64,000 bases of DNA from Eledone cirrhosa (Eukaryota): positions 100,068,001 through 100,132,000 of the forward strand of contig OZ024741.1 in assembly GCA_964016885.1 (NCBI GenBank). The letters run 5' to 3'. The notes beneath the pieces were generated by a model that saw only the letters and a program-made list of their open reading frames with translations, had not been told where the DNA came from and did no database searches. The position numbers and the translations under genes were made by a program. Shown piece by piece: positions 1-64,000 of the stretch (within the stretch, counting starts at the first letter, position 1; each line of letters opens with the position of its first letter).

Positions 1-1668
1 ATTTAGATCAGTCGAAAGCCTTCGATAGGGTCGACCATCGTTACCTAGCGGCAGTCCTGAGGGCGGCTGGCTTTGGGCCCGTCTTCAGAGGCTGGATTGC
101 TGCCATGCACAGCGACATCTGCTCTGTAGTGAGAGTGAACGGTCACCTTTCGGAACCGTTCAACATCATGCGCTCGGTCCGCCAAGGATGTCCCCTCTCG
201 TCCCTATTGTACGTATTGACTTTCGAGCCATTACTGCACAAACTGGAGACGTTGAGGGGGGGTCCCGCGCGAACTAGGATGCGGAAGATCCGTGTCAGCA
301 TATGCCGACGATTTCACCGTAGTGGTGTCGAACGCCAAACACATCGAGGCGATCGGCACTACACTAAGAGAATACGAAGCGGTGACAGGAGCAATGATCA
401 ACCAGGAAAAGTCAGTGGGCCTGCAGCTCGGCACCTGGAGAGGCAGGTCCATGCCGTCCAACAGCGTCGTCGGGCGCTGGACGGACGGACCGGTTAAATT
501 GCTAGGGGTCTGGTTCGGTCCAGACCTCCAGACGGACAAAAACTAGGACGAGGTGACGAGCAGGGTGGCTTCTCTCACCCAGAAATGGGCCGAGAGAAAG
601 CTATCCCTGAAAGGTCGAGCGGAGGTGGCGAATGCGTACATCGCATCCGTCATCTACTACCGCCTGACCGTCGTACCTTGTCCTAAGCCCCGCCTGACTG
701 CGCTGGAGCGTTTGCTCTTTCGCTTCTTGTGGAAGGGACGCGCTCCGATGGTCAGGCGGTCCATCTGCTGTCAACACCCGCTACGTGGAGGGCTGGGCAT
801 GCCGTGGCTGATGATGCGCAGACACGCGCTCAGGCTACGACATCTCCACCTCTTCCTCGACGGTGATCAGGTGTGGTCGCCGTTTGCAAGACACGTTTTT
901 CCCCAGCTCGTCTCCTTGACGGAGCTGCAGTCCTGGGTCAAGCGAAGACCGAGAGGGAGCGCTTGGAGACTGGAATGTCTTCAGGCGCTCACAGCCCTCG
1001 ACCAATCGGGCAATGTGATCGGTGGAAACTCCACCTTGGCGTTCTATAGGGGATTAGTGGAGGGGAAGAGCGACGACGTACTTGGAGAAACTCTAGGCGT
1101 CGACGAAAATCAACTAGCCAATCTCTTCGGAAGGACTTTCGGGCCGGGGCCTATGGACAACTTCCAGAAATCCCTGGCCTGGCAGTGCTACCGAGGAGCT
1201 TTGCCAGTTCGGGATAAACTCTACAGGCATGGAGGTGCCGTCAGCCGGGCATGTCCGAGATGCGCGCAGGGCGACGAAACCGTCCTGCACGCACTCGTCC
1301 AGTGTTTGAGCATTGCTGACTTGTGGGTTTATGTCGAACACCTGCTGTCACGTGTAGGACGGATCCAGCTATCAGCTGAGTCCATCGTGAGGATTGCCCC
1401 GCCCCCTTCCTTTAGCCTGGAAGGGCAGGCAGTTTTTATCTGTCTGGTGGCCATGGCGAAAGAGATAGTATGGTGGACACGTTTGAAAGGGCTGAAGACG
1501 AGCACTTACCTCTTCGGTGATGCCCTGATTAACTTTTTCAAATTTCATTTGAAAAGGAAAATCAGGGTAGAGAGGGAAGTGCTCTCTTCCCAGCATTTTG
1601 TTGAAAGATGGGTGAGAGAAGCAAGTATGGCCCGAATGAATGGGCCTTCTCTGAGTATGTGTCTGTAA
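1..1668 (+). pseudogene. Disrupted ORF2 (reverse transcriptase) of Tx1 copy A
   Basis: Frameshift near 260 (ORFs 105..497 and 292..546), in-frame TAG at 544-546, continuation in ORF 553..1668. Confidence 0.88.
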
Positions 1669-1928
1669 ATTAAAGGTGGAAAACTGGGAGAGGGCACTTG
1701 CCCTGGTTGTCAGGGCCACTGTGGTCTTTTAATGGGCTTTCTCCACAAATGTCCCTTGGAAGTCTCCCCCCTATTCGGGAATTTTTCTTTGTTATTTTAT
1801 TTCAACCTCTGTTTTTTTACACGCAGAAATGCCCATTTGTACCGTCCTGTATTGTCCTGTACTGTCCTTAATGTCTACTTTATGTGAACCCTTGTGGTTA
1901 ATAAAGAAAACATTATTATTATTATTAC
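1..1928 (+). mobile_element. Tx1-clade non-LTR retrotransposon, copy A (3' part: RT C-terminus, C-terminal Cys/His motif, 3' UTR, (TTA)n tail)
   Basis: ORF2 motifs DQSKAFD (nt 7-27), SVRQGCPLS, AYADD, LSLKGRA, GGLGMP and CPRC..ETVLHALVQC; AATAAA near 1900 followed by GAAAACATTATTATT. Runs off the left edge of the window. Confidence 0.92.
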
Positions 1929-2110
1929 AGTTGCATTTATCTTGCTTTATGTTCATACGAGTTATAACCAAGTCACAACCAGTGACCTCAAGAGACAACA
2001 AGGTCCGCCATGTTCAGGAAAGAACATACATATTCACCCATGCATCTTTAGTGTTTAGACTTGTGATGTACTTATATTGACAGAATCTTCCTTAGTATAT
2101 GGGCAGTTCC

Positions 2111-2144
<34 letters not shown>

Positions 2145-2357
2145 GGCGACCTACGTAGAAAATCGTATTATCGTGAGCTCCGCAAAGGTGTGTTGTTTTC
2201 AGTTGATTAAATTTGCCTTTATGGAAAATATTTATTGTTAACTGTATATAAGTGCACATACATTGTTTTCTGAAAAGGACACTCAAAAAGATTAGGGCCT
2301 TGAGCCCAAAATTTAAACTTTTATAATTATCAAACAAAAATTTCTTTGAAAAAATCA

Positions 2358-3685
2358 TGGACGACTCACACCTTCCTCACAAAATAACACCTCACACCGA
2401 CACCACCATTGTAAATATTACTACGTTTGCAAACACTAAAAATATAAGCAGTAGCAATAATTGAAATTTGTCTCATACAGACATTCATTTCCCGCCATTA
2501 CCAATGACTGCAGGGGTTGAAGCCGCCACCCCCACCACCACCACAGCGACAACAGAAACAAAAGAAAAAAATAAATTATCTCGTGACATCGAAATGGTTT
2601 CACCCAGAATGGAATCTTCCACACCGAACACCACTGACGTCACCACCCCTACAACCGAAACAAAAAAATAACAATAACAAAAATAACGATAACAACAACA
2701 GCAACAACAATGAGAATAAGAAAACTACCCTGTCTTTTGCCAGAGTAGCAAAAAGGTGCGAAGCAATCCAAGTAACTCAGGAGGAATTAGATGAAGTCAA
2801 GAGAATGGTAAAGAAAGATGGGTACATGGTCAGCCTCACCCCACCCCCACCCCACACCCACACACACGTAATAAAATGGAGCATCGGCGCCTATGCACCG
2901 TGTCTTATCGGTCGATAAGCATAAAATCGCGCCGAGTGCAACGGGCATCCGAGTCCTAAATCCAAAAAGCTTTGGGACATGTGTGGGCAAAAATAGCCCA
3001 CATCAGATGTGGCCAGAAATATGGAATCGTGGACGTCTACTTTCGAACACCACAGGAGGCCAGAAAACACTCCATGGCCCCATTAAGAAGTGACGACTTT
3101 ACACTCGTCCCAAGCCATTGTGGCCAGAGACTCGTAAAGATCAGGGTGACCCACGTTCCACCGGCCATCGAAATTCCCTGGCTAATGGCTGCCGTCCTAG
3201 CCGGCATCGAGGCCAACACCAACATAATCGAAATAGCGAAAGAAAAGCAGGAGAACTGGTCCGGGTCTGGGATGGAGCTCCTAATCCAAGCAGACGAAAA
3301 AAGCATTGAGGAGATCCCAGAGGTAATAGACCTCACTGACGGCAGCCACCTCACCGTAATCGTCGAGGGCAGAAGGCCTAGGTGTGTCGTTTGTGGTGAA
3401 GGAACCCACCTAAGGGCTTTCTGCCCTCAGGCTAAAAGGTTGAGGCCACCTCTCTTACCCACCCCAGTGACTCAACCATCAACACCACCAGCAGCAGAAA
3501 TGGCAGCAACAACTGTAGCAGCAACAACAGAAGCAACTGTAACAGAAACAACCCCAGCAACAGTAGCAAAATCAACACAACCACCACCCAACGCGCCAGA
3601 ACTAGCACCAGCGCCTACATCATCCACCACGCCACAACCAAAACCAACGCCTGTGGAGGATTTTCCACTCCCCGACCTATCGTAA
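2358..3685 (+). pseudogene. ORF1 (gag-like nucleic-acid-binding protein) of Tx1 copy B, disrupted
   Basis: ORF 2972..3685 has a CX2CX4HX4C zinc knuckle (CVVCGEGTHLRAFC) followed by a Pro/Thr-rich tail; upstream pieces 2358-2918 are broken by stops and frameshifts. Confidence 0.75.
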
Positions 3686-4330
3686 CCGTAGACAGATTAT
3701 GACGACGAGGAGTGTGAAACGGTATCAAGAAAATAGAAAATAAGAAAAAGAAACCAAAATAGAAAAAAAATTCTCTTCCTTCCCCTTCCAAAAAAAAAAA
3801 ATACAGAGGGAAACAAATAAACTATCAAACAAAAGAGTTAGGACAGCTATTCCACCATCCACACCAGCATCACAAACCCCATCACCGCATACACCAACAC
3901 CATCACCATCATTAACCCCAACTCCACCATCACCAACACCACAAAAGTCACCAAAAAGTGAAACAGAAACAAACCCACAACAAACGCAAACAAAACAAAA
4001 CAACCAAAACGATACACACTACACAGCATTAAATTTGAACAACAACCAATTATTACACTACATCCAACACAACACCAGCATCACAGAAAAAGGCTACACA
4101 ACAACCCAAAAGTTCACACCAAATCACTCGCATCACACAGAAAACGTATACGACACTAAAACCAAAATTCACCAAAGACATCGGAGGCTTCCGACAAGCA
4201 CTCTCCAGGTGGATTTAAAAGGACATCCTTCCGGAGGAGGCCACAAGCGGTGAAAAGGATGGTGAAATCATCCTTCCTCTACGAGAAGTAAGGTAAGTGG
4301 TCTTTCCCATCTTTTCCACTCCATTTCTAC

Positions 4331-6471
4331 ATGACCTCACTCAGAATAGGCAGCATAAATGCCCGTGGCTTGGGGTCGTCATGGAAGCAAGGCCACCTGC
4401 TCAACGACCTCAGGTCACTAAACATAGATGTAGTGGCCATCAGCGAGACAAGAATCTCCGAAGCACGGGCCTTCGCACCGATCTTCGGCGGCTACGATGT
4501 GTACGCAACTCCCAGCCGTCCTGGATCGGGAGGAGGAGTTGCTGTGCTTTTTCGGAGAGGTTTGGATCTCACCATGCGGGCCATCTTCCTTGACTCAGAA
4601 GGTAAGTTGGTGGTGCTGGACGTGACCAGCAGAGACGGGCAAGCTTTCAGGCTAGTGACCGTCTATGCCACGACAGGAGCAGGGCGGCCTGCTTTCTACC
4701 GGCGTCTGGAGATCTTTCTTGGAACGTCTCCCACTTTAGTGTTAGTGGGCGACTGGAACGCGATCTTAGATGCACGCTTGGACTGTGTAGGATTAGCGGA
4801 TAGGGGAGGAGGGCGCAAGAGCCTCACCAACCCGCTCAGGCGTTTTGAACTGTCTGACAGGTACCGATTGGATTTCCCGAATGTGCCAATGTGGACTTGG
4901 ACAAATCGCATAGGATCATCCAGATCATATCTAGATAGAATATTTTGTAGGGAAATAGATAGGTCTAGCATAGGCTGTTCACAATTCAAGATAGTCAGCT
5001 ACACGGACCACAAATTCGTGATCTGTGTGCTTGACTTAGATAGGCTTCATAGACGAGGACCCGGCTACTGGAAGCTAAACGCGTCCTTACCAGCGCGCAA
5101 GACCTACAGAGACCGGATTAGCCAACTAGTTAAGCGGGCGTTGACGGGGGCCATCGTCAACAATAAGTCGTGGTTTGCTCTGAAAATAGCGACTAGAATA
5201 GATTCCATTAGGTTTAGTAAGGTTTTAGCAATAGAGAAAAATAGAGCAGAGGGAGAACTAGTTAGAAAATTAGACGAGGAGCTTATAAAAGGCATCGCGA
5301 CCGACGTACTTGCGTCGAAATTGGCCCTTGACCAATTCTTCAATGCAAAGCACGAAGGCTGCGTTGTCAGAGCTAGGTTGCGGGCTCTCAGACACGAGGG
5401 GACGAAAGCCGTTCTTTGGGCCTGGGTGGCGGAGGCGCGACGTGACAACAAAGCCAAGGTCCGGTCTTTGGTGGACCACGACGGGCGCATGCTTTTCGAT
5501 CCCGGTCAAATGTGTGAAGTTTTTCAGCGACACTTCGCTCAGCTGTTCGGGGGCAGCGGCGGATCGAGTCGAGGGATGGACTTTAGTGTCTACCTCGACG
5601 GACAGCCACTGAGGCGGAGTGTTTCGAAAAGCCCATAACAGCCGCTGAAGTACGGGAGGCAATGACTGGCTGCACAAGGGGTAAATCGCCTGGTTTGGAT
5701 GGTCTGCCCTATGAACTTTACGTACAAATGCCAGACTTGTTCGGAGGCCTCTTGGCGGACGTCTACTGCAACTGGCAACAGAACGGGAGAATTCCCAGCT
5801 CTGTGAGCCGAGGAGCGGTGGCGCTGCTGAGAAAGGATCCGAACAAGGGGGATAACATAGATAATTTTAGGCCCATAACTCTGCTAAACACAGAGTTCAA
5901 GATTTTGGCCAAGGTGCTAGCAAAGAGGTTGGCGCTTGTCGTTGGTGGTCCGGTGGGAGACGCGCAGACATGCGCCATTCCCGACAGATCTATCCACGAC
6001 AACCTCCACCTCATGCGATACATCGTAGAGAGGGTAGCTAGGGTACCTGGCACGGGTGGGTCCTTGATCAATTTAGATCAGTCGAAAGCTTTCGATGGGA
6101 TCGACCTAGCGGCAGTCCTGATGGCGGCAGGCTTTGGGCCCGTCTTCAGAGGCTGGATCGCTGCCATAGACAGCGACATCTGCTCTGTGGTGAGAGTGAA
6201 CGGTCACCTTTCGGAACCGTTCAACATCATGCGCTCAGTCTGCCAAGGATGTCCCCTCTCGTCTCTCTTGCACGTATTGACTCTCGAGCCATTTCTGCAC
6301 AAACTGGAAAATGTGAAGGGGATCCCGCGCGAACTAGGATGCGGAAGATCTGTGTCAGCATATGCGGACGATGTCAGCGTAATGGTGTCGAACGCCAAAC
6401 ACATCGAGGCTATCGGCACTACACTATTAGAATACGAAGCGGTGACAGGAGCAATGATCAACCAGGAATAG
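4331..6471 (+). pseudogene. ORF2 of Tx1 copy B: APE-type endonuclease + reverse transcriptase, frameshifted
   Basis: 4331..5638: SINARGL, ISET, GGGVAVL, VGDWN, SYLDRIF, YTDH, GPGYWKLN (APE). 5662..6471: KSPGLDG, FRPITLLN, DQSKAFD, QGCPLS, AYADD (RT). Frameshift near 5610; stop at 6469-6471. Confidence 0.92.
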
Positions 6472-6489
6472 TCAGTAGCCCTGCAGCTC

Positions 6490-8350
6490 GGATCAATCTA
6501 AAGCACTTGTTAGGGTCGGTATCTGGCTGCGGTCCTCGAAATGGCCGGCTTCGAGCCTGTTTTTAGGGGCTAGATCACTGCGATGCACAGCGACATCTGC
6601 TCGATTGTGATGGTGAATGGTCACCAGTGCAGCCTTTCAGCATCATGCGCTCGATCCGCCACGGTTTCCCCCTCTCGTCCCTCTTGTACGTACTGGCCCT
6701 CGAGCCGTTACTGCACAATTGGAGACAATGAGGCGGGGTCCCACGCGAACTGGGATGCGGGAGATCTGTGTCAACTTACGCCAACGACACACCGTGGTGG
6801 TGTCGAACACCAAACACGTCTAGATGCTTGGCACCGTTCTCAGGAACACTAAGCGGTGACAGGAGCAAACATAAACCTTGAAAGTCGGTGGACAACTCGG
6901 CACCTGGAGAGGAAAGTCCATGCCGTCCGACAGCATCGTGGGGCGCTGGACGGAAGGACCGTCTAAATTGCTCGGGATCTGGTTCGGTCCGGACCTCCAG
7001 ATGCAGAAAAACTCGAGCGAAGTGACCTCTCTCACTCAGAAATGGGCCGAGCGGAAGCTGATTTCGGTGGCACAATACATCCGTAATCTGCTACCGCCTG
7101 ACCGTCGTACCTTACCCCGCTCAACTCTGACCAAGATGGGGCACCTTCTCTTCCGCTTTTTGTGGAAGGGACGTGCTCCCATGGTCAGACGATATTTGCC
7201 AGTTGCGTGGAGGACTTGGCATGCCGTGGCTAACGATGCGCAAACATGCGCTGAGGCTGCGATATCTCTGGTGCTTCCTTGACGGTAGAACAGGCGTGGT
7301 CGCCATTTGCCAGACGCGCTTTTCCCCAGCTCGTCTCCTTGAGGGAGCTGCAGTCATGGATCAGGAAAGGACCCAGGGATAGCGCTTGGAAGCTGGAATG
7401 TCTCCAAGCGCCCACCGCCCTCTACCATGTGGGCACTTGTATCGGTGGAACATCCACCTCGGCGTTCTATAGAGGGCTAGTGGATGGAAAGAGTGACGAC
7501 GTTCTCGGGGAGACCCTGGGCGTCGAAGACGGTCAGCTGTTCGCTCTCTTCAAGAGAACGTTCAGACCGGGGCCTAGGGACAACTTCTAGAAATCCCTGG
7601 CCTGGCATTGCTACCGGGGAGTGTTGACGGTTCGGGATAAGCTCTAAAGGCACGGAGGTGCTGTCAGCCGAGCCTGGCCGAGATGCGCACAGGGCGACGA
7701 AACCGTCCTGCATGCATTCGTTCCTTGCCCGTGGATTGCTGACTTGTGGAGTTATGTCGATCAGGTGCTGTCGCGTGTAGGACGGATCTGGTTATCGACT
7801 GAGTCCATTGTGAAAAAAAACCCACCATCCTCCTTTAAAGAGGAGGTGGCCATGGCGAAAGAGATTGTGTGGTGGACAAGGTTGAAAGGGTTGAAGGCGG
7901 ACACGTTCCTCTCCGGCCAATCCCTGATTAACTTTTTCAAGTTTCACTTGAAGAGGAAAATCAGGGTGGAGAGGCAAGTGCTGTCTTCTAGTAAGTTTGT
8001 TGAAAGATGGGTGAAAGTGGCGAGACTGGTCCGAGTGAACGGGCCCGCTCTGAGTATGCGCCTGTAGACTGAGCAGTGGGAAAACAGTGAGCGCGCTTGC
8101 CCTGGTGGTCAGGGTGGCCGTTGTCTTTTGCGTGGTTTTCGCCACGAGTGAACCTCGGAGTTTTCCCCCTTTTTGGGGAATTTTTGTTGTTTGAATTTTT
8201 TTTATTTCTATCCCGATTACTATCTTGTTATAACCTGTTTACACGACCAAAACCCAATTTGTATCGTACTGTACTGTTCTTTGCCGTCTCTAATGTTTTT
8301 CTTCATGTTAGCTCTTGTGGACAATAAAGAAACCATTATTATTATTATTA
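6490..8350 (+). mobile_element. Tx1-clade LINE copy C, 5'-truncated and more decayed, with 3' UTR and (TTA)n tail
   Basis: Colinear with copy A from the DQSKAF motif to the end of ORF2 (fragments 6878..7282, 7279..7590, 7744..8067); ends AATAAAGAAACCATTATTATTATTA. Confidence 0.9.
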
Positions 8351-12610: not shown

Positions 12611-12660
<50 letters not shown>

Positions 12661-12667
<7 letters not shown>

Positions 12668-13655
12668 AAAAAATGGGGAGAAGAATACTGCATGGTTGCA
12701 CGTGGATAACATGTTATAAAATGAGTCCCTCATCAGTGATTTACCAACGGTCATAGGTATTTCATTACATTAAAAATCATATATTTCACGTTGGCGCAAT
12801 AATAACTAAAATAAGTTATTAGGACAATTAAAACGCGTAAAGCGAGTGAGACAAGTAAACAACACAGAGGAAAACTAACGGAAGATAGGAAAGACACAAG
12901 CTACATAGTTATTCTATCAGTATAAGCTGGGTGAATTATGAGCGAGTAAGAAATAGACCTTTCGAGATGAATCCAATGTAAGAAAGAAGGAAAATCGTTA
13001 ACATCGCGAACGGGGGAAGTGAGAAGGGGAGAAACAGTGAGTGAGTGAGTAGAAGTGTGAGGAAGAGGTCAGTAGAGAGAAAATGTTAACTGACATGACA
13101 GAGGGGACGAAAGAAAGTAAGAGAAACAGAGAGAACGAGGGAGCAGTAAGAGAGAGAGAGAGAGAGAAAACAGAATCGCAGTTTAGGTAAATATATGTGA
13201 AAAAATGGGGAGAAGAATACTGCATGGTTGCACATGGATAACATGTTATAAAATGAGTCCCTCATCAGTGATTTACCAACGGTCATAGGTATTTCATTGC
13301 ATTAAAAATCATATACCTCACGTTGGCGCAATAATAACTAAAATAAGTTATTAGGACAATTAAAACGCGTAAAGCGAGTGAGACAAGTAAACATCACAGA
13401 GGAAAGCTAACCGAAGATAAGAAATACACAAGCTACATAGTTATTCTATCAGTATAAGCTGGGTGAATATATGAGCGAGTAAAAAATAGACCTTTCGAGA
13501 TGAATCCAATGTAAGAAAGACGGAAAATCGTTAACATCGCGAACGGGGGAAGTGAGAAGGGGAGAAACAGTGAGTGAGTGAGTAGAAGTGTGAGGAAGAG
13601 GTCAGTAGAGAGAAAATGTTAACTGACATGACAGAGGGGACGAAAGAAAGTAAAT
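12661..13655 (-). mobile_element. Partial tandem (about 534 bp period) of a PLE pLTR-like repeat between (TA)n tracts
   Basis: 12661-13120 is nearly identical to 13194-13653; each unit has TCATCAG (CTGATGA on the minus strand); a related sequence lies at about 31040-31260. Confidence 0.6.
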
Positions 13656-14239
13656 ATATATATAGAGAGAGAGAGAGAGTGAGAGTCATATTAGGGCATA
13701 TAAATCACCATAACGATACGAAAATGGGTATTAGAACGCTTAGGAATCGAACCAACACCTCTTCATTCGTGGAAAAGTAAGTTGGATCGATTACGCAAAC
13801 ATGTCCACTCATATTTCCCCGTTAATCCTAGAGGACTATAGAGATAATATCGTTAAATATGAATGTACGTGTTAATTAGAAAACAGTAGATGAACGAAAA
13901 GTTTGAAATTATAATTAGAAGCTTTCACCGTTTATTGACAAGAGAAAATAATTAAATATTCGGGCATATGAACGCCCATAAGAGAACAAAATGGACATTA
14001 ACACGCATAGACACCGAACACACATGTGGGAGCAAGTTATATTTTAAAATTGTATAAAAGAAAACAGGAATCTTAAGCTGACAAAACTCCTGATGGTGTA
14101 AATGTTAAATATATAAAAGTAGATATGATTCAGATCAGAATATTTGCTGTTTGAAGCGAAGAACAGCAGGGGCCATATTAGAAAATACGAGAACGTTCTG
14201 AGCAATTGAAACTGAAAATAGACTTGTATTTGAAAACCG

Positions 14240-14590
<351 letters not shown>

Positions 14591-15169
14591 ATATTTATTT
14601 TTATACATACACATATGGACAAACCCATAGGGTGAGTGTGTGTCTATCTATGTGTGGAACTGAATGGATGTCTGAGAGAGAGAAAGAGAGGGAGAGAGAG
14701 AAAGAGAGAGATGGGGAGGACTGTGACTCTCAGCTCTTCTACTAAACACATACTCACATGAATAAACAACACATATCACTTACGTTTTGATACATAATAC
14801 CAATCATTTTGAAGAGCTCAACAGTAACGGTAAAATATTAATTTCCTTGACGAACTTTGGAATTCAGTCGTCATCTAAATTTGGCTTCTATTTGGTCACA
14901 AATTTGTTTCCATTTCATTTACAGCTGTGCAAGATACATTCCATAATAACTTGATGCTTCCCTTTTCTTTATTTTCTTAGAATATTGAACGGAAACATAC
15001 ACGTTGAATAATATTGTTTTGTTTTTCAGCCACGTAACATCCAGAACATCTTTGACGTTGAATGTTTGGAATCTAAATGACTTGCAATACATCAAAAAGC
15101 AACTTCGTGCATATGCACGAATACAAAATATTTAATTATATACGTACATGCACTAGCAGGAATACGCAC

Positions 15170-15214: not shown

Positions 15215-15403
15215 GAAACGAGTAGGACCCCGACGGCTGAGCTCAAGCCGTCTCGGAGGCTAATTCAGTCCAGAATTAGCCGTCGAAACGGCTTGAGCTC
15301 AGCCGTCGGGGTCCTACTCGTTCCTATTACCCACTCTACTACCCTAAGTATTGAGTACTTTGGTGCGTTATGGTCTATCTGGTTCCTTACCACATTTCCT
15401 TCG

Positions 15404-18815: not shown

Positions 18816-19034
18816 AACACACACAAACACACACACATATATATATATATGAATATACACACATAAATATATAGATACATATATATATATATTCCACAAT
18901 GTGAAACACACAGACTGACCAACTTTATAGACATACTACTAAAACCAATTCTCAAACACATACCAAGCCTTGTAAGAGACGATCTGGACCTCTTAAACCA
19001 CATCCCCAAACATGTCAACAACGGCACTATTATT

Positions 19035-20237
19035 GTGTCTTTCGATGTAGTGAATCTCTACACAACGATCCCACACCAATACGGACTAGAAGCAATAGGA
19101 TTCTGGCTAGATAAATATCCCAATGAGATACCTGACAGAATAGAAAACACCTTCATCACCGAGGGATTAAAATTCATCTTACAGAACAACTTTTTTGATT
19201 TCGATGGCAGTACTTACAAGCAAATATCGGGGACTGCGATGGGTACAAAAGCCGCTGCGACTTATGCCAACTTAGTCATGGCATACTTAGAAGTCCAGAT
19301 ATATGAACAGTCCAAATCGAAATACGGATTGAACTTCCACAAATATTTATCAGAGAATTGGAAACGCTATTTGGATGATTGTCTCATTCTTTGGTCCCAC
19401 ACACTCGACCAACTGAAGGATTTCAAAAATGTAATAAACGGCATCAATAAACACATCCAATTCACAATGGAATACAGCGATCAACTCCCATTTCTGGACA
19501 TCTTAATCTTTAAAAAAGACACAAATATTGAAACTTACATACACTACAAACCAACAGATTCCAAACAATACCTGCTATTCACCTCCAACCATCCAAAGCA
19601 CACGAAGACGAACATTCCTTTTAACCTAGCAAAAAGAATTTGCACAATTGTCTCTAATTATGGAACGCGAAATAAAAGACTTCAAGAATTAATGGAAATT
19701 CTACTCGAAAGAGAGTACCCACCATTACTAATAAATAATGGAATAGAAAGGGCTAAAGCAATAGGCATTGTTGAATTACGTAAACAGAAACAAATTCAAG
19801 GTACGTCCAATATTCTATCATATATCTCAACACACAACCCAAGAAATGCGGAAGCTTACAAGACTATTCACAAGAACATCCCACTACTAAAACAAAACCC
19901 AAGAATGAAAAAAGCCCTTGAAACACACAAAATAATCAAAAGCAAAAGACAACCGAAATCACTCAAAACATTACTCACCAATGCCAAATTACCTACCACA
20001 AACCCACAACCAACTGTCAAAAAATGTGGTCGCTCTAATTGTGGAACCTGCACTCATCTCATTGAAGGCAACCCGTATACATTTAAATCAGGACAAAATT
20101 TTACTGTAAAAAATCACTTCTCTTGCTCATCAAAAAATCTACTTTATGCCATTAAATGTAAAGGATGCAATGAAGATTATATAGGACAAACTAAACTCAC
20201 ACTCAGAAACAGAATGACAGTTCATCGCCAACAATGA
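19035..20237 (+). pseudogene. PLE reverse transcriptase + GIY-YIG endonuclease (5'-truncated; premature TGA, homology continues to about 20420)
   Basis: SFDVVNLYT, GTAMGT, RYLDD, LPFLD, YKPTD, linker CGRSNCGTC, LYAIKCKGCNEDYIGQT, RMTVH; after the TGA the frame continues RDPTTRQIPLSAHLDICA. Confidence 0.92.
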
Positions 20238-21791
20238 CGAGATCCAACCACGAGACAGATACCACTAAGCGCACATCTAGACATATGCGCAAGTAATAAG
20301 ACACCCAAATTCCAAGTCTTCCCATTTTCCCTTGCGCTAACAATACAACAGAACAAATACGAATAAATAAGGAAAATATGTTTATTCAAAAATATAGACC
20401 AGCATTAATTATGGTTTAATATACATTATGTCAACACCATAACATGCTAACCATCCAAACAGACACATACACACACACATAACACCTTCTACTTTAGAAA
20501 ATAAAAACCCGAACTAAATAAACCTTAACATACGTTTGCGCTGACAATACAACAGAACAAATAAGAATAAGTATGGAAAATATGTTCATTCAAAAATATT
20601 CCTACTAAAGGAATCATTTTCCTACACACACACACACACACACACAATATATATATATTCTCTTCATCTTAACATGCTAACCATACTCCCACACACATAA
20701 CAACCCCCACCCCCACACACACAACTCCCTCCCCCATTTCTACTAATAGAATCACTTTCCTACACACATATATACACACACACAAAATATATATATTCTC
20801 TCCATCTTAACATACTCCCACCCACACACATATATATAACACCCATATACACACACACACACAACTCCCTCCCCCATTTCTACTAATAGAATCATCTTCC
20901 AATACACACACACACACACACAAGCACACAAATAAACATACATATCTTTACTTTCTTTATTCAATAGAAAATCTGAATTCTGACACCCCAGAGAACTAAC
21001 CATATTCACTGAACCAGAACAATTCTCCAATCAAATTTCTCTTGACCATTATCTTTTACTTATCATAAAATTCTCTAAAAAGGCTACATAATAGATTTCC
21101 AAATAAGGACGCGAAAATTTAATGAAAACTTGTTCACGTGACAGCCATAATTTCATTTATAACCAATCAAATTACGTTTATTAAAAAAAAGCCTTCGTGA
21201 GCTCCCTTTTTTTAAAGTAAAATGAAATTCAAACACACACACACAACACACACACACACAAACACACATACACACACACACACACACACACAAGCACACA
21301 AATAAACATACATATCTTTACTTTCTTTATTCAATAGAAAATCGGAATTCTGACACCCCAGAGAACTAACCATATTCACTGAACCAGAACCATTCTCCCA
21401 TCAAATTTCTCTTGACCATTATCTTTTGCTTGTCAAAAAATTCTCTAAAAAGGCTACAGAATAGATTTCCAAATAACGGCGCGTTAAATTTAATGAAAAC
21501 TTGTTCACGTGACAGGCATAATTTCATTTTTAACCAATCAAATTACGTTTATTAAAAAAAAGCCTTCGTGAGCCCCACCTTTTTTTAAGTAAAAAGAAAT
21601 TCAAATATGAAAAAACAACCTGTGACCCCCCTTTGTAACGCGAAATGGCGGGAAATTTATTATAATTATTGACCGACGAATCAAATTACTTCTCGAAAAA
21701 CCTGGCTTTTCGAGCCACTTTTTCCATATAAAACAAGTAACATTCAGAGACCAACCAGATGTGAGAAAAACCACAGACCCTCCATCTCAAC

Positions 21792-30619: not shown

Positions 30620-31260
30620 GTGGAACACTGGAAGGTAATATCCGTAGTGATAGAGCACTCAGTCCAAGGGACGAGTCAGGTAGAAGTGGTTACACAACAG
30701 TTAGTTCACCATACCTAGAACAATTGTTTCACCTTAGAGGAAGATCTGCTAAGGTGAAACCATTGATCCGCTAAGGTGAAGCAACGAAAAGTGAGGAAGA
30801 AGGAGTCAAGTCCCAAATTTCCATGAATATAAGTTCGGTGAAATCGTGAACGAGAGAGAATAAAGACCATCAAACCTAGTTGAAATGTGAGCAAGGAAGG
30901 AATTTCGCACATGTCTAATGGGAGGAAGAAGGGGTCTAGTTCCTGAATTCGGTGAACATAAGTTCTGTGAAATCGTAGACGAGAGAGAGAAAAAAGGCGA
31001 ACAAGCGTGCGAAAGAAAAGAATTACGCACAGGTCAAACGGGAAGAAGGAGGAGGAGGAGAGGTAGTAACAGAGAGTGAGTGAAGAGTGAGGAAGAGGCT
31101 AACAGAGAGAGTGACTGTTAGAGAGGGTAAAGATACAGAGAAAGAGGAAGCAGTAAGAACGAAATAGACGGGTCACAACGGGGAAAAAAATATGTGTAAA
31201 TATGAGAATAAACGTGCTGCGTGGTTGCTAATGGGTTACATATGAATATATCACTTCATG
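30617..31260 (-). mobile_element. PLE-type terminal fragment with GAGTGCTC motif, short fold-back and pLTR-like sequence
   Basis: GAGCACTC 30653-60 with GAGT 30673-76; hairpin 30721-30765; 30684-30737 is the reverse complement of 45023-45072; 31040-31260 resembles the 12.7-13.6 kb repeat. Confidence 0.65.
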
Positions 31261-40313: not shown

Positions 40314-40395
40314 ACTTCCCTGATGACGAAAGGCTTCTCCGTGCTCTCTTAGGTTAGTACGTTTAATCCCTTTCAGAAACTAATTAGTTGGGAGT
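40314..40395 (+). ncRNA. Type I hammerhead ribozyme
   Basis: Stem I ACTTCC/GGGAGT; CTGATGA 40320-26; stem II GAAAGG/CCTTTC; GAAA 40376-79; palindromic AACTAATTAGTT; cleavage triplet GTT. Confidence 0.85.
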
Positions 40396-40830
40396 GAAAT
40401 TTAAGTAAGTTAATTTTATAATTTTCTTATTTTACGTCTCTCATATTATTGTTCTGCTACCCCATGCATTGAACCACATAGTTACTAAGACAAAACCTAT
40501 ATATTTGCTAACATAAGTATGCATCTGTGTATATATATGTTACTAGATATACTATTTCTTTATAATTATCTCCAAAATTATTTGTCGAGCAAAAATGGCC
40601 AAAACTGCTGCTATAGTAACAGTACGGCTGCTGTCTTACTAACAAACCACTATCCACTGATTGACCTCGATGTCACGTGATTGATTCTTTTGAATTTGCC
40701 ACCGACGCAGTAGGCAGTGATTTTATCAATGGCTTGGAATTAGTCCTCGCTTTGCTTTTTCGATCCACTGAATTATTTGTGTATAAGTTCCCTCTGTCCA
40801 CGTATTGCCTGGAAACTAAGCTGAGAATAG

Positions 40831-40912
40831 ACTTCCCTGATGACGAAAGGCTTCTCCGTGCTCTCTTCGGATAGTACGTTTAATCCCTTTCAGAAACTAA
40901 TTAGTTGGGAGT
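40831..40912 (+). ncRNA. Type I hammerhead ribozyme (second copy)
   Basis: Same core and stems as 40314-40395; differences are confined to the stem II loop. Confidence 0.85.
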
Positions 40913-41004
40913 GAAATTTAAGTAAGTAAGTTAATTTTATAATTTTCTTATTTTACGTCTCTCATCTATATATATTTATATATATATATTAGAAGATCAT
41001 GATT

Positions 41005-43032: not shown

Positions 43033-43422
43033 CCATATATGTATATATATGTGGGGTCAGCAATAGTCAGTCCTTGTATTAACATTGAACTAAACCTGTT
43101 GAGAAAGTGGCTTCCTTGTTCAATCATCTTACCAGAAGCCTGACATTATTTATGTAGGTGGACGGTACTTGATTTAGGAGCCGCAGAAACCCATATACTG
43201 GATTTTACCAATCATCCAGGGTTCTGGGTAAATTTTCAATACCCGAATTACTTGATCGTTTTTTTTGGCTATGCGAATGATTGTTTAACCATCGTCTCAG
43301 TGTGTTTGGCCTTTAACGTTTGTTATAGCTTTAGTTCATCTGAATCATTGAGCACTTGCCGCACATCTCGGAGGTTGTTTTTCGTTATTTCGTGGGCCGA
43401 AATGCGAATCCCGATAATTTAT

Positions 43423-43469
<47 letters not shown>

Positions 43470-43498
43470 TACTTGACACACACATATATGTATGTATG

Positions 43499-43583
<85 letters not shown>

Positions 43584-44263
43584 ATATCCACGGTTAGTTG
43601 TGGGGTCTAGTCTGCATGAAGAACTCAATGTAATCCATATGTTGAAAATGTTGTAGGTTAAAATAAATCCCGGAAACCAATAAAACATCAAAAGGAAAAC
43701 AGTATCACGATATAAGTTAAAACAATGAAATAACAATTCAAGTCATTAGAAATATACTTCACTGCTTTACAATCGTTTCTAGGTGATAATAATACATCGT
43801 ACGCATATTTCGTTATCGATCTATGTAGGGTTAGTTACCAAATATCAAATAATCAAATAATCAAATAAGGAATATTAGGGTCAGTAATAGTCAGTCATTG
43901 CATTAACATTGAACTAAAACCTGTTGAAAAAGTGGCTTCCTTGTTCAATCATCTTACCAGAAGCCTAACACTATTTATGTAAGCGGACAGTATTTGATTT
44001 AGGAGCCGCAGAAACCCAAATGCTGGATTTTACCAACTTTCCAGGGGTCGGGGTAAATTTTCAATCACAGATATTTTTTATTTGTTTGACTCGAATTACT
44101 TGATCGTTTTTTTGGCTATGCGAATGATTGTTTAACCATGGTCTCAGTGTGTTTGGCCTTTAACGTTTGTTATAGCTCTGGTTCATCTGAATCATTGAGC
44201 ACTTGCCGCAGATCTCGGAGGTTGTTTTTCGTTATTTCGTGGGCCGAAATGCGATTCTCGATA

Positions 44264-44265
<2 letters not shown>
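43033..44265 (-). mobile_element. Duplicated PLE-like segment (43033-43420 matches 43878-44265) with a decayed hammerhead and tail at 43580-43870
   Basis: Direct repeat of about 385 bp, each copy abutting (TA)n; minus strand reads TTGATAT...TA GAAA CGATTG TA and GAGTTCTT near the terminus. Confidence 0.55.
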
Positions 44266-44329
<64 letters not shown>

Positions 44330-44379: not shown

Positions 44380-44607
44380 TACTGTAGTACAAATTTAGTA
44401 TAAATATCCAAGGGTTTAGAGCACTCAGTCTATAGGACGAGTTAAGTATAATTAGTTAAAACAGTGACATTACAGCTACTTAAGTTTTGTTGGCTTGTTT
44501 ACCCTTACTCATTCAGTCTGTCGAAAAGAAAACAATACGACAGTCTGAATGAGATGGGATAAACAACCCAACGAGAATTAAGTTCCTGTACATGTCACTG
44601 CTGTATA
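44380..44607 (-). mobile_element. Fold-back mini-element with GAGTGCTC motif
   Basis: GAGCACTC 44419-26 with GAGT 44439-42; imperfect arms 44461-44523 and 44538-44605. Confidence 0.75.
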
Positions 44608-45006: not shown

Positions 45007-45069
45007 TACGAGCTGAGGATCCGCTAAGGTGAAACAATTTTTCTCGGTGAACTAACTGTTGTGTAACCA

Positions 45070-45111
<42 letters not shown>

Positions 45112-45896: not shown

Positions 45897-46749
45897 TATA
45901 TTCAGTGAACATATCGCCAATTGTGCACCCAACCAACATCCAAACTTTAAAATTGTCCCCATTTACAAATTCATAGACAACGCTACTTTCATCCATCGTA
46001 CCAATAAGGAAACGTATTTCATTTATAAATTCCAACCTCCACTTAATGCACTAAACATCGGACTAAACTAACACTGGAACGAACAATGAACCAAATACAA
46101 ATAATTATGTCTCTCTAAAGAGTTACCTTCCTAACACCCTACCTAATCCTTTTTCTTAAGTAAATTAAATACCATACATCATTTCTCTCCCACCCTGAAA
46201 TACCCCCCACCCCCCTGGATATTATCTCTCTAAAAAGAGAAATCATATCAAACCCTAGACTACCATTTGCCTCCGTTATTGATCAACTAAGCCCTCTTGC
46301 TATATTAAGACATTTTGGTCTGCTTATCTTCAAGAACTATGCCTGCAAATTATATTATTTTTTCTTTCACATTGCCTTAATATGTTCCACATTACGCCCC
46401 TTTTTTTTCTTTTTTCTTTTCACTTCATAAACCTTGTTTGTAAATAACATTATTCTTTCTGCACTATTTCCTTAACATGTTCAACACCACCATTTTACAC
46501 CACTACATATTATTATCATTTGATAATGCATAAACATGCTGAAACCGGTAATAGACAATTATTAAATATATAAATAAATAAATAAATGCTATTGTTAATT
46601 AATAAATAAATTAACTAATACCTTAACACTTCACACAAAGTAAAATATTTCGTTTTAATCATTTTCTAACCCAGAAAAAAGAGAGAGAAAAATAAAAAGG
46701 AATAAAAAAATATTTTTCTTCCTAATAATCGTCTTTTTCTCCCTGTCTT

Positions 46750-46750
<1 letters not shown>
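45897..46750 (+). mobile_element. PLE 3' end + pLTR (same family as 62.1-63.5 kb)
   Basis: FSEHIANCAPNQHPNFKIVPIYKF...KFQPPLN; colinear with about 62680-63498; ends at (TA)n. Confidence 0.85.
46513..46554 (+). ncRNA. Minimal type I hammerhead ribozyme, U3-A8 core variant
   Basis: TTGATAA 46520-26, stem II GCAT/ATGC, GAAA CCGG TA, then ATAG. Confidence 0.55.
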
Positions 46751-46911: not shown

Positions 46912-47354
46912 GCTTTACTTCCTTTAAATCTTCATCAACACTCCTTCACTCCCACACTCATTATCACCCCGCCTCCAACACACACACACACACACACACA
47001 CACACATTTATCTCTCTTATATAAAGAGTCACACATCATAACACAACCTGATCTCTGTTTGATAATCGCTACCTATAAATACGAGTAAGATCTCCAGGAA
47101 AGTTAACCAGGAAGCTTTAAAAGTCTCCCCACCGAAGATAACAAAGAACTTACTAGAACCAAATTGTAAAATCCTGATATTATAAAATTAAATCAAATTG
47201 TTTATAACTACAAGTAAAGTCATTCTTTTCATTTTTTAATATATATAGGAAGTGTAGTAAGGTACCAGGAGGACCATAACGCACCAGAGTACTCGATACT
47301 TTGGGTAGTAGAGTGGGTAATATGACTATTTTCCTAAATATATATGTATATATA

Positions 47355-47707
47355 GGTATTAATGTGGAAAGTAATTGCGCCCGTATGTGGTATGCCGATA
47401 TGAGCACTCGATGTTCTTAGAGAGCAGAGTATCAATAATAATAATATAAAGGGAATAAAGCATCAGTGTTGCATCATATACAAATTTAGTTACATATTAC
47501 ATGTTTCACTGTCAATCAGCTCGAGGAACGATCGATTAATTATCGAACCTGACCCTGGAATCGGACGTTCCTCAGTTATATTGATAACATGTAGACTCGC
47601 GTCGTCAGGTTCGATCATTACTCGATCGTTCCTCGAGTTGATCGACACTGAAACATATGTAATATGTAATTAAATTGATTCTTTGTTCCCTTTATATTAT
47701 ATTATAT
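47355..47707 (-). mobile_element. Fold-back mini-element (about 100-120 bp arms) with GAGTGCTC motif
   Basis: GAGCACTC 47402-09 with GAGT 47427-30; arms 47435-47553 and 47604-47706; tail related to 63938-63975. Confidence 0.8.
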
Positions 47708-47752: not shown

Positions 47753-47795
47753 ACAATCCTGATGAAGGGTAATGGCCCAGAAACATGTTGATTGT
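47753..47795 (+). ncRNA. Minimal type I hammerhead ribozyme
   Basis: Stem I ACAATC/GATTGT; CTGATGA 47759-65; stem II GGGT/GCCC; GAAA 47780-83; palindromic ACATGT; cleavage triplet GTT. Confidence 0.85.
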
Positions 47796-51746: not shown

Positions 51747-51912
51747 TATATAACGTTAGTTCAACAACAAATTACCAAACCATACTCTAGGACCCAACGG
51801 ATACTTGGGTGAAGAGTGCGCCTACGAGTTTGATTTGCTAATCTCTTGTGGAACAAACTTTATACCGACTTCGTCCTATGAACTGAGTGCTCTACTTACT
51901 GCGGATATAACC
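51747..51912 (+). mobile_element. Decayed fold-back mini-element with GAGTGCTC motif
   Basis: Outer arms 51749-51767 and 51846-51864, inner acccaa/ttgggt; ACTTCGTCCTATGAACTGAGTGCTC at 51868-92 resembles the 44.4 kb and 30.65 kb motifs. Confidence 0.65.
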
Positions 51913-61459: not shown

Positions 61460-61548
61460 TCTCTCTCTCTCTTTCTCTCCATCTATTTATTTTTCTCAAT
61501 CTATCTATCTATTTTTCAAATCCACTGTTAATAAAGACACCAGGATTT

Positions 61549-61608
61549 TTTCATTCTGATGAATGAAAGCAATTTTGGTTGCTTTCAAGAAACCACTGGT
61601 GAATGAGA
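61549..61608 (+). ncRNA. Type I hammerhead ribozyme (G at position 17, probably inactivated) in a pLTR-like fragment 61500-61700
   Basis: Stem I TTTCATT/AATGAGA; CTGATGA 61556-62; stem II TGAAAGCAA/TTGCTTTCA; GAAA 61589-92; stem III CCA-C-TGG; triplet GTG. Confidence 0.75.
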
Positions 61609-61697
61609 TAATTATCTTATGTTGTTTATTACATAACTAATAAGCTCTGTAACCTACATAGAGCACTCTTTTTCCTGGACCTTTCCGACGGAATTAC

Positions 61698-61730
<33 letters not shown>

Positions 61731-61735
<5 letters not shown>

Positions 61736-61920
61736 GAAGGAAATGTGGTAAGGAACCAGATGGACCATAACGCAACAAAGTACTCAATACTTAGGGTAGT
61801 AGAGTGAGTAATAGGAACAAGTATGACCCGACAGCAGAGCTCAAGCCGTTTCGACTGCTAATTTTGGACTGAATTAGCCGTCGAAACGGCTTGAGCTCTG
61901 CCATCGGGGTCATACTTGTT

Positions 61921-61925
<5 letters not shown>
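61731..61925 (-). mobile_element. Fold-back mini-element, second copy of the 15.2 kb family, inside (TA)n
   Basis: Reverse complement of 15212-15405; arms 61811-61864 and 61871-61925. Confidence 0.85.
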
Positions 61926-61961
<36 letters not shown>

Positions 61962-62124
61962 ATACAAATAAATTTGAAAACTAAAATCCAAAGAGGCTTC
62001 GATAAGGATAAATATATATCAAATATATGAGAAACGTAGAGCAAATATTTAGTTTCAGAAGATCCCGTTAAGGGTGAAAGCAGCGATTATTTGCTTAAAA
62101 TTTAATCTGTTATTTTAATAAATA

Positions 62125-64000
<1,876 letters not shown>

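Follow-up and report, generated by a model that had tools for sequence, protein, structure and literature searches.

The focal stretch of the window, by which we mean the whole 64-kb stretch of DNA analysed, belongs to a known type of element, of which it is a dead copy. It is almost certainly the terminus of a PLE, and its motif and layout place it very probably in the Hydra clade. Hammerheads in pLTRs, PLE tails and the Hydra clade itself are known from published work. Behind the hammerhead lies a bulged hairpin that is apparently a tandem RNA signal shared across the clade, not described before and linked with both insertion ends, and the position of those ends suggests that the hairpin probably fixes the 3' junction.

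The focal hammerhead and its repeat family

The initial annotation had placed a type I hammerhead at 61549-61608(+), which is borne out by sequence reading, by the MFE fold and by a descriptor scan set against shuffles. The ribozyme is of the dimer type, with a pseudo-palindromic stem III. Read from the sequence, stem I pairs 61549-55 with 61602-08, the core consists of CUGAUGA at 61556-62 and GAAA at 61589-92, stem II (9-10 bp) pairs 61563/64-72 with 61579-87/88, and stem III (61592-61600) is self-complementary at 8/9 positions. Of the minimal type I hammerhead of PLEs, the focal sequence has the CUGANGA and GAAA core, the three helices, with stem I as the closing one, and the short palindromic helix III. 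The three-way fold is the MFE structure of the focal sequence (z -3.36; 0/200 shuffles), and since the opposite strand folds well too, z alone does not settle the strand. Exact-core hammerheads number four in the 64-kb window versus none in each of 30 shuffles. Rfam covariance models gave no hammerhead match on the focal stretch; they also gave none on the hammerhead of an intact element in contig L027, which shows that the test is insensitive.

Minimal dimer-type hammerheads described from metazoan PLEs (Cervera and de la Pena 2014, PMC4209133) share with the focal one the type I topology, the long helix II, the palindromic helix III and the location in a pLTR. In contrast to those, the focal copy lacks the G10.1-C11.1 pair, having A opposite A where most of the family depth has T at 61563, and it carries G at position 17. 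This base, 61601, directly follows U16.1. Hammerhead cleavage triplets obey the NUH rule, under which G at position 17 is non-cleavable. Because the family has A at 61601 in 99, 97, 95 and 96-97% of the depth of the four runs, the G is private to the focal copy, and by the NUH rule the change is predicted to give a non-cleavable triplet. It had been proposed that H17 should be restored; the base is G rather than missing, and the family consensus that would restore it is A. The family hammerhead would be expected to cleave as a dimer in tandem transcripts, and the focal copy with G17 would not.

The family was followed in reads of four sequencing runs, three from organism A and one from organism B, mapped on 61500-61704 at 80% likeness. 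The focal stretch is a high-copy repeat, with 2357 contigs in run X1 alone, a run that may come from the sample behind the assembly, and pieces that start at 61512. Family reads and a profile match delimit the focal copy as 61512-61700(+), a 5'-truncated copy of what is likely the 3' terminus of a Hydra-clade PLE, with an approximate 5' boundary. Among the 40 variant rows listed of 67, the hammerhead core positions are unvaried; N7 is free, and the listed stem changes preserve wobble pairs.

Two 3' ends, 61 nt apart, are found in the family. The short end, at 61639, lies in the 35-nt spacer behind the hammerhead (61609-61643, +), and (TA)n follows it in other copies (16 contigs at an agreement of 0.72, all in X1, one of the four runs). 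The long end lies at about 61700-02, after a 32-nt remainder of the tail (61669-61700, +) defined by sequence and loose read ends; loose ends at 61702 run into TA in 33 contigs of X1, five of X4 and one of X5. The sequence then enters a (TA)n target at 61701-61731, to which no strand is assigned and which is shared tail to tail with the next element. The succession of 32-nt tail and (TA)n had been noted before and is exact. Opposite-strand joints cluster at 61512-61546 in the family reads, with 3-5 reads each, and none occurs at the focal copy itself; a single back-joint was seen, in one contig of depth 3.6. The family reads thus show 5' truncation, inverted copies and an optional tail with two 3' ends, and this layout is that of EN+ PLEs as described in PMC8557442. 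Piles of read ends at 61610-13 and 61695 in run X6 fall on AATT and were taken to be library cut sites. A non-LTR retrozyme array was considered and rejected: non-LTR retrozymes (bioRxiv 10.64898/2026.07.22.740005) likewise have a type I hammerhead in a PLE-derived non-coding repeat, whereas the focal copy is single and not a tandem array of units each with a hammerhead.

The bulged hairpin within and beyond the window

The motif at 61644-61668(+), identified by sequence, scan and pair counts, consists of GCTC, an upper stem, a TA bulge, GAGC and ACTC. It reads exactly as first annotated, GCTC-TGTA-ACC-TACA-TA-GAGC-ACTC. Its general form is RCTC-[hairpin]-UN-GAGY-RCT, which covaries across families, and exact sites with an inner stem number six in the 64-kb window against a shuffle mean of 0.03 (maximum 1). 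The bulged register proposed for it is supported across families, whereas the focal motif folded alone has a 7-bp unbulged helix as its MFE structure. When copies are folded one at a time, some give the bulged hairpin and others do not, and the folds of two-motif regions are unexceptional (z -1.7 and -1.2).

As a MAFFT alignment misregistered the 5' arm, pairs were counted by anchored parsing, in 23 sites hand-picked for a hammerhead, an ORF or a sister end, several of them first seen through the U-bulge filter. The outer pair is Watson-Crick in all 23 selected sites (19 G-C and 4 A-U, all four A-U from the window), in keeping with the ACTC/GAGT to GCTC/GAGC covariation suggested earlier. The bulge begins with U in 21 of these sites and is a single U in the remaining two. 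Upper-stem pairs 1-3 form in 59/69 cells, compared with a null mean of 33.7, a maximum of 46 in 10000, and 16-25 in slid registers. Because this set was hand-picked and partly bulge-filtered, the tests of hammerhead co-occurrence and N-terminal extension given below are cleaner. The eighth base of the motif varies between C, T and G, so the GAGYRCTC palindrome is not kept.

Other readings of the focal motif were discarded. On the minus strand it has no 5' arm, and there is no tail on that side. As an in-trans substitute for hammerhead stem III it finds no match in the focal stem III, and stem III sequences vary independently. Helitron 3' ends have a hairpin about 10-15 nt before a CTRR end; the focal hairpin, unlike these, lies 32 nt from an end that reads CTTC.

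Scanning located further motifs in the window. A second family at 61732-61925(-) comprises an inverted-repeat body (61811-61925), a motif with an A-U outer pair (61778-61805) and a 46-nt tail, and its arm ends 5 nt before the motif position. A sister at 15333-15360(+) also has an inverted arm that ends at -5, and the same family recurs at 47287-47314(-) with a 39-nt tail. The motif at 30653-30676(-) has a 1-nt U bulge, a degenerate hammerhead upstream (by eye) and a 36-nt tail; sister-end comparison shows that a copy of its family at 45007-45075(+), where a hammerhead-like core is visible by eye, terminates in (TA)n 4 nt short of the motif position, and the sequence at 51869-51892(+) holds a degenerate motif of the same type. 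Three motifs follow palindromes: 44419-44442(-), after palindrome 44462-44600, with an inverted arm ending at -14, an outlier; 47402-47430(-), after a long palindrome, with an arm ending at -4; and 63940-63961(+), an internally deleted motif of the 47402 family, with an arm ending at about -8. A motif with a G-C outer pair and a 62-nt tail lies at 44175-44204(+) and has a degenerate sister at 43328. Scan and pair counts also gave a variant hairpin (GTTC/GAAC, TT bulge) at 40451-40478(+), downstream of a hammerhead at 40314-40395, whose sister 40831-40976 ends 6 nt before this position. A strict detector found a hammerhead upstream of one of the 11 window motif sites, the focal one alone; three more look degenerate by eye.

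Several hammerhead-like sequences of the window were noted in their own right. The hammerheads at 40314-40395(+) and 40831-40912(+) are 517 nt apart and have a 49-nt stem II, a perfect 10-nt stem III palindrome and U at position 17. The palindrome arms at 44462-44600 and 47483-47676 contain, by eye only, cores that resemble a hammerhead's but are one base longer (8 nt), together with a palindromic stem III. At 47753-47795(+) a minimal hammerhead sits inside an extended stem I, and the motif is absent downstream. Two pairs of 500-nt repeats end at (TA)n, one (12656-13685, -) with a CUGAUGA core and no GAAA, the other (43054-44266, +) ending in the motif.

Outside the window, metagenome contigs were scanned with a pattern whose sole requirements were RCTC, GAGYRCTY and a TA run. 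The scan gave at least 117 loci and, among the matches listed, 107 distinct sites; 18 of these have a U-starting bulge and an inner stem of at least three pairs, four have such a stem with another bulge, and most of the remaining sites are probably chance. A same-strand hammerhead lies 39-57 nt upstream in 7/33 U-bulge sites versus 1/59 others, where the gap is 12 nt (Fisher p 0.003), a count that covers the 92 sites among the matches listed with enough upstream DNA and in which some of the seven are related families. Antisense hammerheads occur at 3/33 U-bulge sites and 0/59 others among the matches listed; shuffles gave 0/276. Since PLE insertions carry inverted arms, antisense hammerheads near the motif are accounted for, and orientations can validly be compared only on the tail-adjacent arm. 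Three loci from a scan of viral contigs were left out of all counts.

Tandem hairpins in Hydra-clade elements

The link to PLE coding regions is direct in contig L027, where two intact PLEs meet tail to tail at a single (TA)n. Both ORFs show RWR, DKT, CxCX5C, CxxC and CxH, and neither has CCHH. The features given for Hydra-clade ORFs in PMC8557442 are RWK, DKT, CxCX5C, CxxC, CxH and no CCHH, and on their predicted sequences the motif-bearing L027 ORFs agree with that description. When the L027 ORFs were used as queries, Hydra ORF pieces were detected upstream on the motif strand in six elements (L027 twice, L037, L067, L048 and L020; the L020 motif counted here differs from the site matched by the pattern scan), and antisense, in the inverted-arm position, in L100 and weakly in L013. 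Together with the same-strand hammerheads, these ORFs uphold the original proposal that the motif is tied to a hammerhead-bearing, PLE-style end and that its sense strand is defined. The same queries revealed no Hydra ORF in the 64-kb window and none adjoining the focal copy, which is why the clade of the latter is read from motif and layout.

Like the focal copy, the Hydra-clade PLEs of Craig et al. (2021, PMC8557442) have a (TA)n target and a canonical hammerhead near the 3' end, and the focal stem III is nearly identical to one listed there for Hydra-1_oBim; they differ from it in carrying an ORF. We compared by eye six Hydra consensus sequences from File S7 of PMC8557442. Hydra-2_Amil and Hydra-2_Ajap have the ending hammerhead, motif, tail; Hydra-1_Ajap starts with two motifs; in Hydra-1_Crog both ends carry variants, one of them with a GCCC/GGGC change; Hydra-1_Amil stops just before the motif position; and Hydra-1_Obim has no clear motif. 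This makes three clear motifs, one variant, one sequence stopping short and one unclear. In the Naiad and Chlamys published consensus (PMC8557442), the whole-line matches of six octamers number 20, none of which lies in a bulged-hairpin context by eye, and both Neptune-type PLE ends in the window (hammerheads 46516 and 63265) end without the motif.

A sequence-only profile, R1, of length 168 was built from 11 non-window ends. The focal copy is its third-best match and the sole near-full-length one (model 9-162 of 168, E 0.008); the top eleven matches include six other motif sites as well as AT-rich noise, so the support is weak. The top match, at 14780-14910(-), is a degenerate hammerhead 3' half with a motif 3' arm and no TA end. 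Protein scans found no relatives of the L027 ORF in viral or prokaryotic contigs, and Pfam did not recognise the Hydra ORFs, with one sub-threshold match. The protein database held 3382 Hydra-like proteins among 7999 candidates, versus 27 families in the 2021 paper (PMC8557442).

In intact elements 40-55 nt separate the hammerhead from hairpin 1, which is followed after 34-42 nt by hairpin 2 and, a further 6-25 nt on, by the ATG. Both L027 elements have direct terminal repeats, of which the 5' repeat extends beyond the tail. The 5' repeats run from hairpin 1 through 42 or 37 nt to hairpin 2 and through a further 11 or 17 nt to the ATG, and the 3' repeats stop at TATA, 3 or 2 nt before hairpin 2. 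In L008 a motif lies, by eye, 6 nt before a Hydra-like start, and the two motifs of Hydra-1_Ajap, also by eye, are separated by 34 nt and precede the ATG by 25 nt (PMC8557442, File S7). On this sequence evidence, intact Hydra-type elements carry the motif twice in tandem between hammerhead and start codon; in the focal family copy 1 only is observed.

The same arrangement can be traced in proteins called through the leader. Among 120 Hydra homologues, 15 had at least 20 residues called upstream of the conserved N-terminus, and 14 of these 15 are compatible with the full motif, against 26/300 shuffled and 3/300 internal peptides; the test scores peptide compatibility, not DNA, on proteins that are related. 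Two of the N-extended proteins show two motif copies 63 nt apart.

Inserted copies end at TA, 2-8 nt upstream of hairpin 1 (short end) or of hairpin 2 (tail end). At the short end no motif is copied; the long end copies hairpin 1, as in the focal copy. Short ends determined by inverted arms or sister copies lie at -5, -5, -4, -8 and -4 in the window, at -2/-6 in L080, at -3 in L048 and at -4 in the focal family. An inverted arm or sister end was found for a minority of the 24 sites tried, with one arm at -14, and in L004 and L008 the arms diverge at positions -31 and -21, with no passage into TA.

Some further elements were observed alongside. Both terminal repeats of an intact L027 element (275-335 and 2783-2838, +) contain a hammerhead with the core pair G3-C8 in place of C3-G8, a natural version of a laboratory hammerhead double mutant. 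The hammerheads at 46516 and 63265(+) have a U3-A8 core and lie downstream of Neptune-like PLE remnants (45900-46750 and 62106-63499), and the two copies stop at one and the same base before (TA)n. The Neptune-like ORF at 62106+ was considered as parent of the focal copy and rejected, being adjacent but downstream and Neptune-like. Elsewhere the window is microsatellite-rich animal DNA, likely from an octopod since one of its PLE ORFs matches part of an Octopus protein at 64%, with a 5'-truncated Neptune-like PLE (RT, CxxC linker, GIY-YIG) at 18867-20400(+) followed by a 370-nt direct repeat (20904-21605), and GC-rich, partly duplicated LINE-like pieces (AP endonuclease, RT, zf-RVT) at 1-8350.

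Setting of the insertion ends

How PLEs choose the start of reverse transcription, and what causes the one-sided tail and inverted arms, are stated to be open questions (PMC8557442, PMC11167929). We lean towards the view that the bulged hairpin is one of two tandem RNA docking signals in a truncated Hydra-clade PLE 3' end. From the geometry of the junctions we infer, with somewhat better than even confidence, that it sets the 3' junction through RT docking and internal initiation. The RT-endonuclease would dock at each hairpin and begin copying a few bases upstream of it, at a UA predicted to pair with the nicked (TA)n target DNA. The enzyme, perhaps as a dimer, would bind two hairpins and prime from both target strands; one cDNA would arise per site, and head-to-head joining would yield an inverted repeat with a one-sided tail. 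More tentatively, at slightly under an even chance, the tandem 20-30-nt bulged hairpin may serve as a molecular ruler, with a dimeric telomerase-related RT-endonuclease binding both copies and making two internal cDNA starts, one per nicked (TA)n strand, which would explain both tail and head-to-head arms and provide a portable insertion signal. Because hairpin 2 lies outside every integrated 3' end, it must act on RNA or on the donor.

The Poseidon PLE offers the closest experimental parallel. In vitro its reverse transcription begins internally, at two sites bounding the tail, and depends on RNA lying 3' of the start; the enzyme nicks both strands and is a predicted dimer (Frangieh et al. 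2024, PMC11167929). The Hydra-type elements share the two 3' ends bounding an optional tail and, as predicted from their sequence, a need for RNA 3' of the start. They differ in tail length, about 57-71 nt (61 in the focal family) versus 30-40 in print, and in the conserved hairpin repeated behind each end; the Poseidon start sites lie in a stem-loop, and its printed sequence lacks our motif (PMC11167929).

The main rival is RNA 3'-end processing, in which a host nuclease, an element protein or termination would cut upstream of each hairpin and ordinary TPRT would proceed from the free ends. It predicts ends in the same places, 2-8 nt upstream of one or other hairpin, and RNA-seq read ends at Poseidon, which also fall on the two start sites, are compatible with either docking or processing (PMC11167929). 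However, the Poseidon enzyme starts internally on uncut RNA (PMC11167929), and long-end copies retain hairpin 1 uncut, so that cutting would have to be partial; we regard processing as unlikely. A function in DNA or cDNA, with the motif marking the intermediate for trimming through endonuclease recognition or resolution, is rather improbable. The tail has been ascribed to EN-mediated resolution (PMC8557442), the D. virilis tail is cited in PMC11167929 as required for EN recognition, and GAGYRCTC is near-palindromic, but the upper stem shows covariation and its bulge is one-sided, the palindrome is not conserved, and the position of hairpin 2 beyond every integrated end also argues against this reading. 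We give a similarly low probability to a motif that governs how the ORF is transcribed or translated from its start, as by cap-independent initiation once the hammerhead has cleaved, with the junctions nearby for another reason: copy 2 does sit 6-25 nt before the ATG, yet the distance to the DNA junction is tighter than that to the ATG, short non-coding insertions retain the motif, and a junction precedes both copies. That the parts adjoin by chance, or form a Helitron/MITE-type end with no relation to PLEs, is very improbable and largely refuted: many of the 107 listed metagenome sites are unstructured and the long palindromes between TA runs resemble MITEs, but the window shuffles, hammerhead co-occurrence, N-extension test and pair counts all speak against it, as do the one-sided extension and the direct link to PLE ORFs in L027, L037, L067, L020 and L048. 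For the inverted arms, an antisense self-priming model (PMC3846280) is an alternative.

Structured RNA positions RT on its template in several systems, through stem-loops at LINE and SINE 3' ends, in the R2 3' UTR, in hepadnaviral epsilon and in telomerase RNA. In contrast to these, the element found here is tandem, and its place is beyond the copied part, on the 3' side of the start site. No description of the hairpin was found in the literature searched, including term searches of PMC8557442, whose main text contains no occurrence of hairpin, stem-loop or palindrom, and of bioRxiv 10.64898/2026.07.22.740005, or in Rfam.

The motif is a clade marker for ORF-less insertions, of which the 64-kb window has about ten. 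With docking as the favoured reading, a conserved element at a fixed distance behind both ends makes the choice of start in PLEs testable with a compact enzyme of 700 aa. Telomerase has the PLE RTs as its sister group, and for that reason a protein-binding hairpin that flanks an internal template and sets it would bear on the origins of telomerase. The motif could also be a minimal signal for RNA-templated gene insertion.
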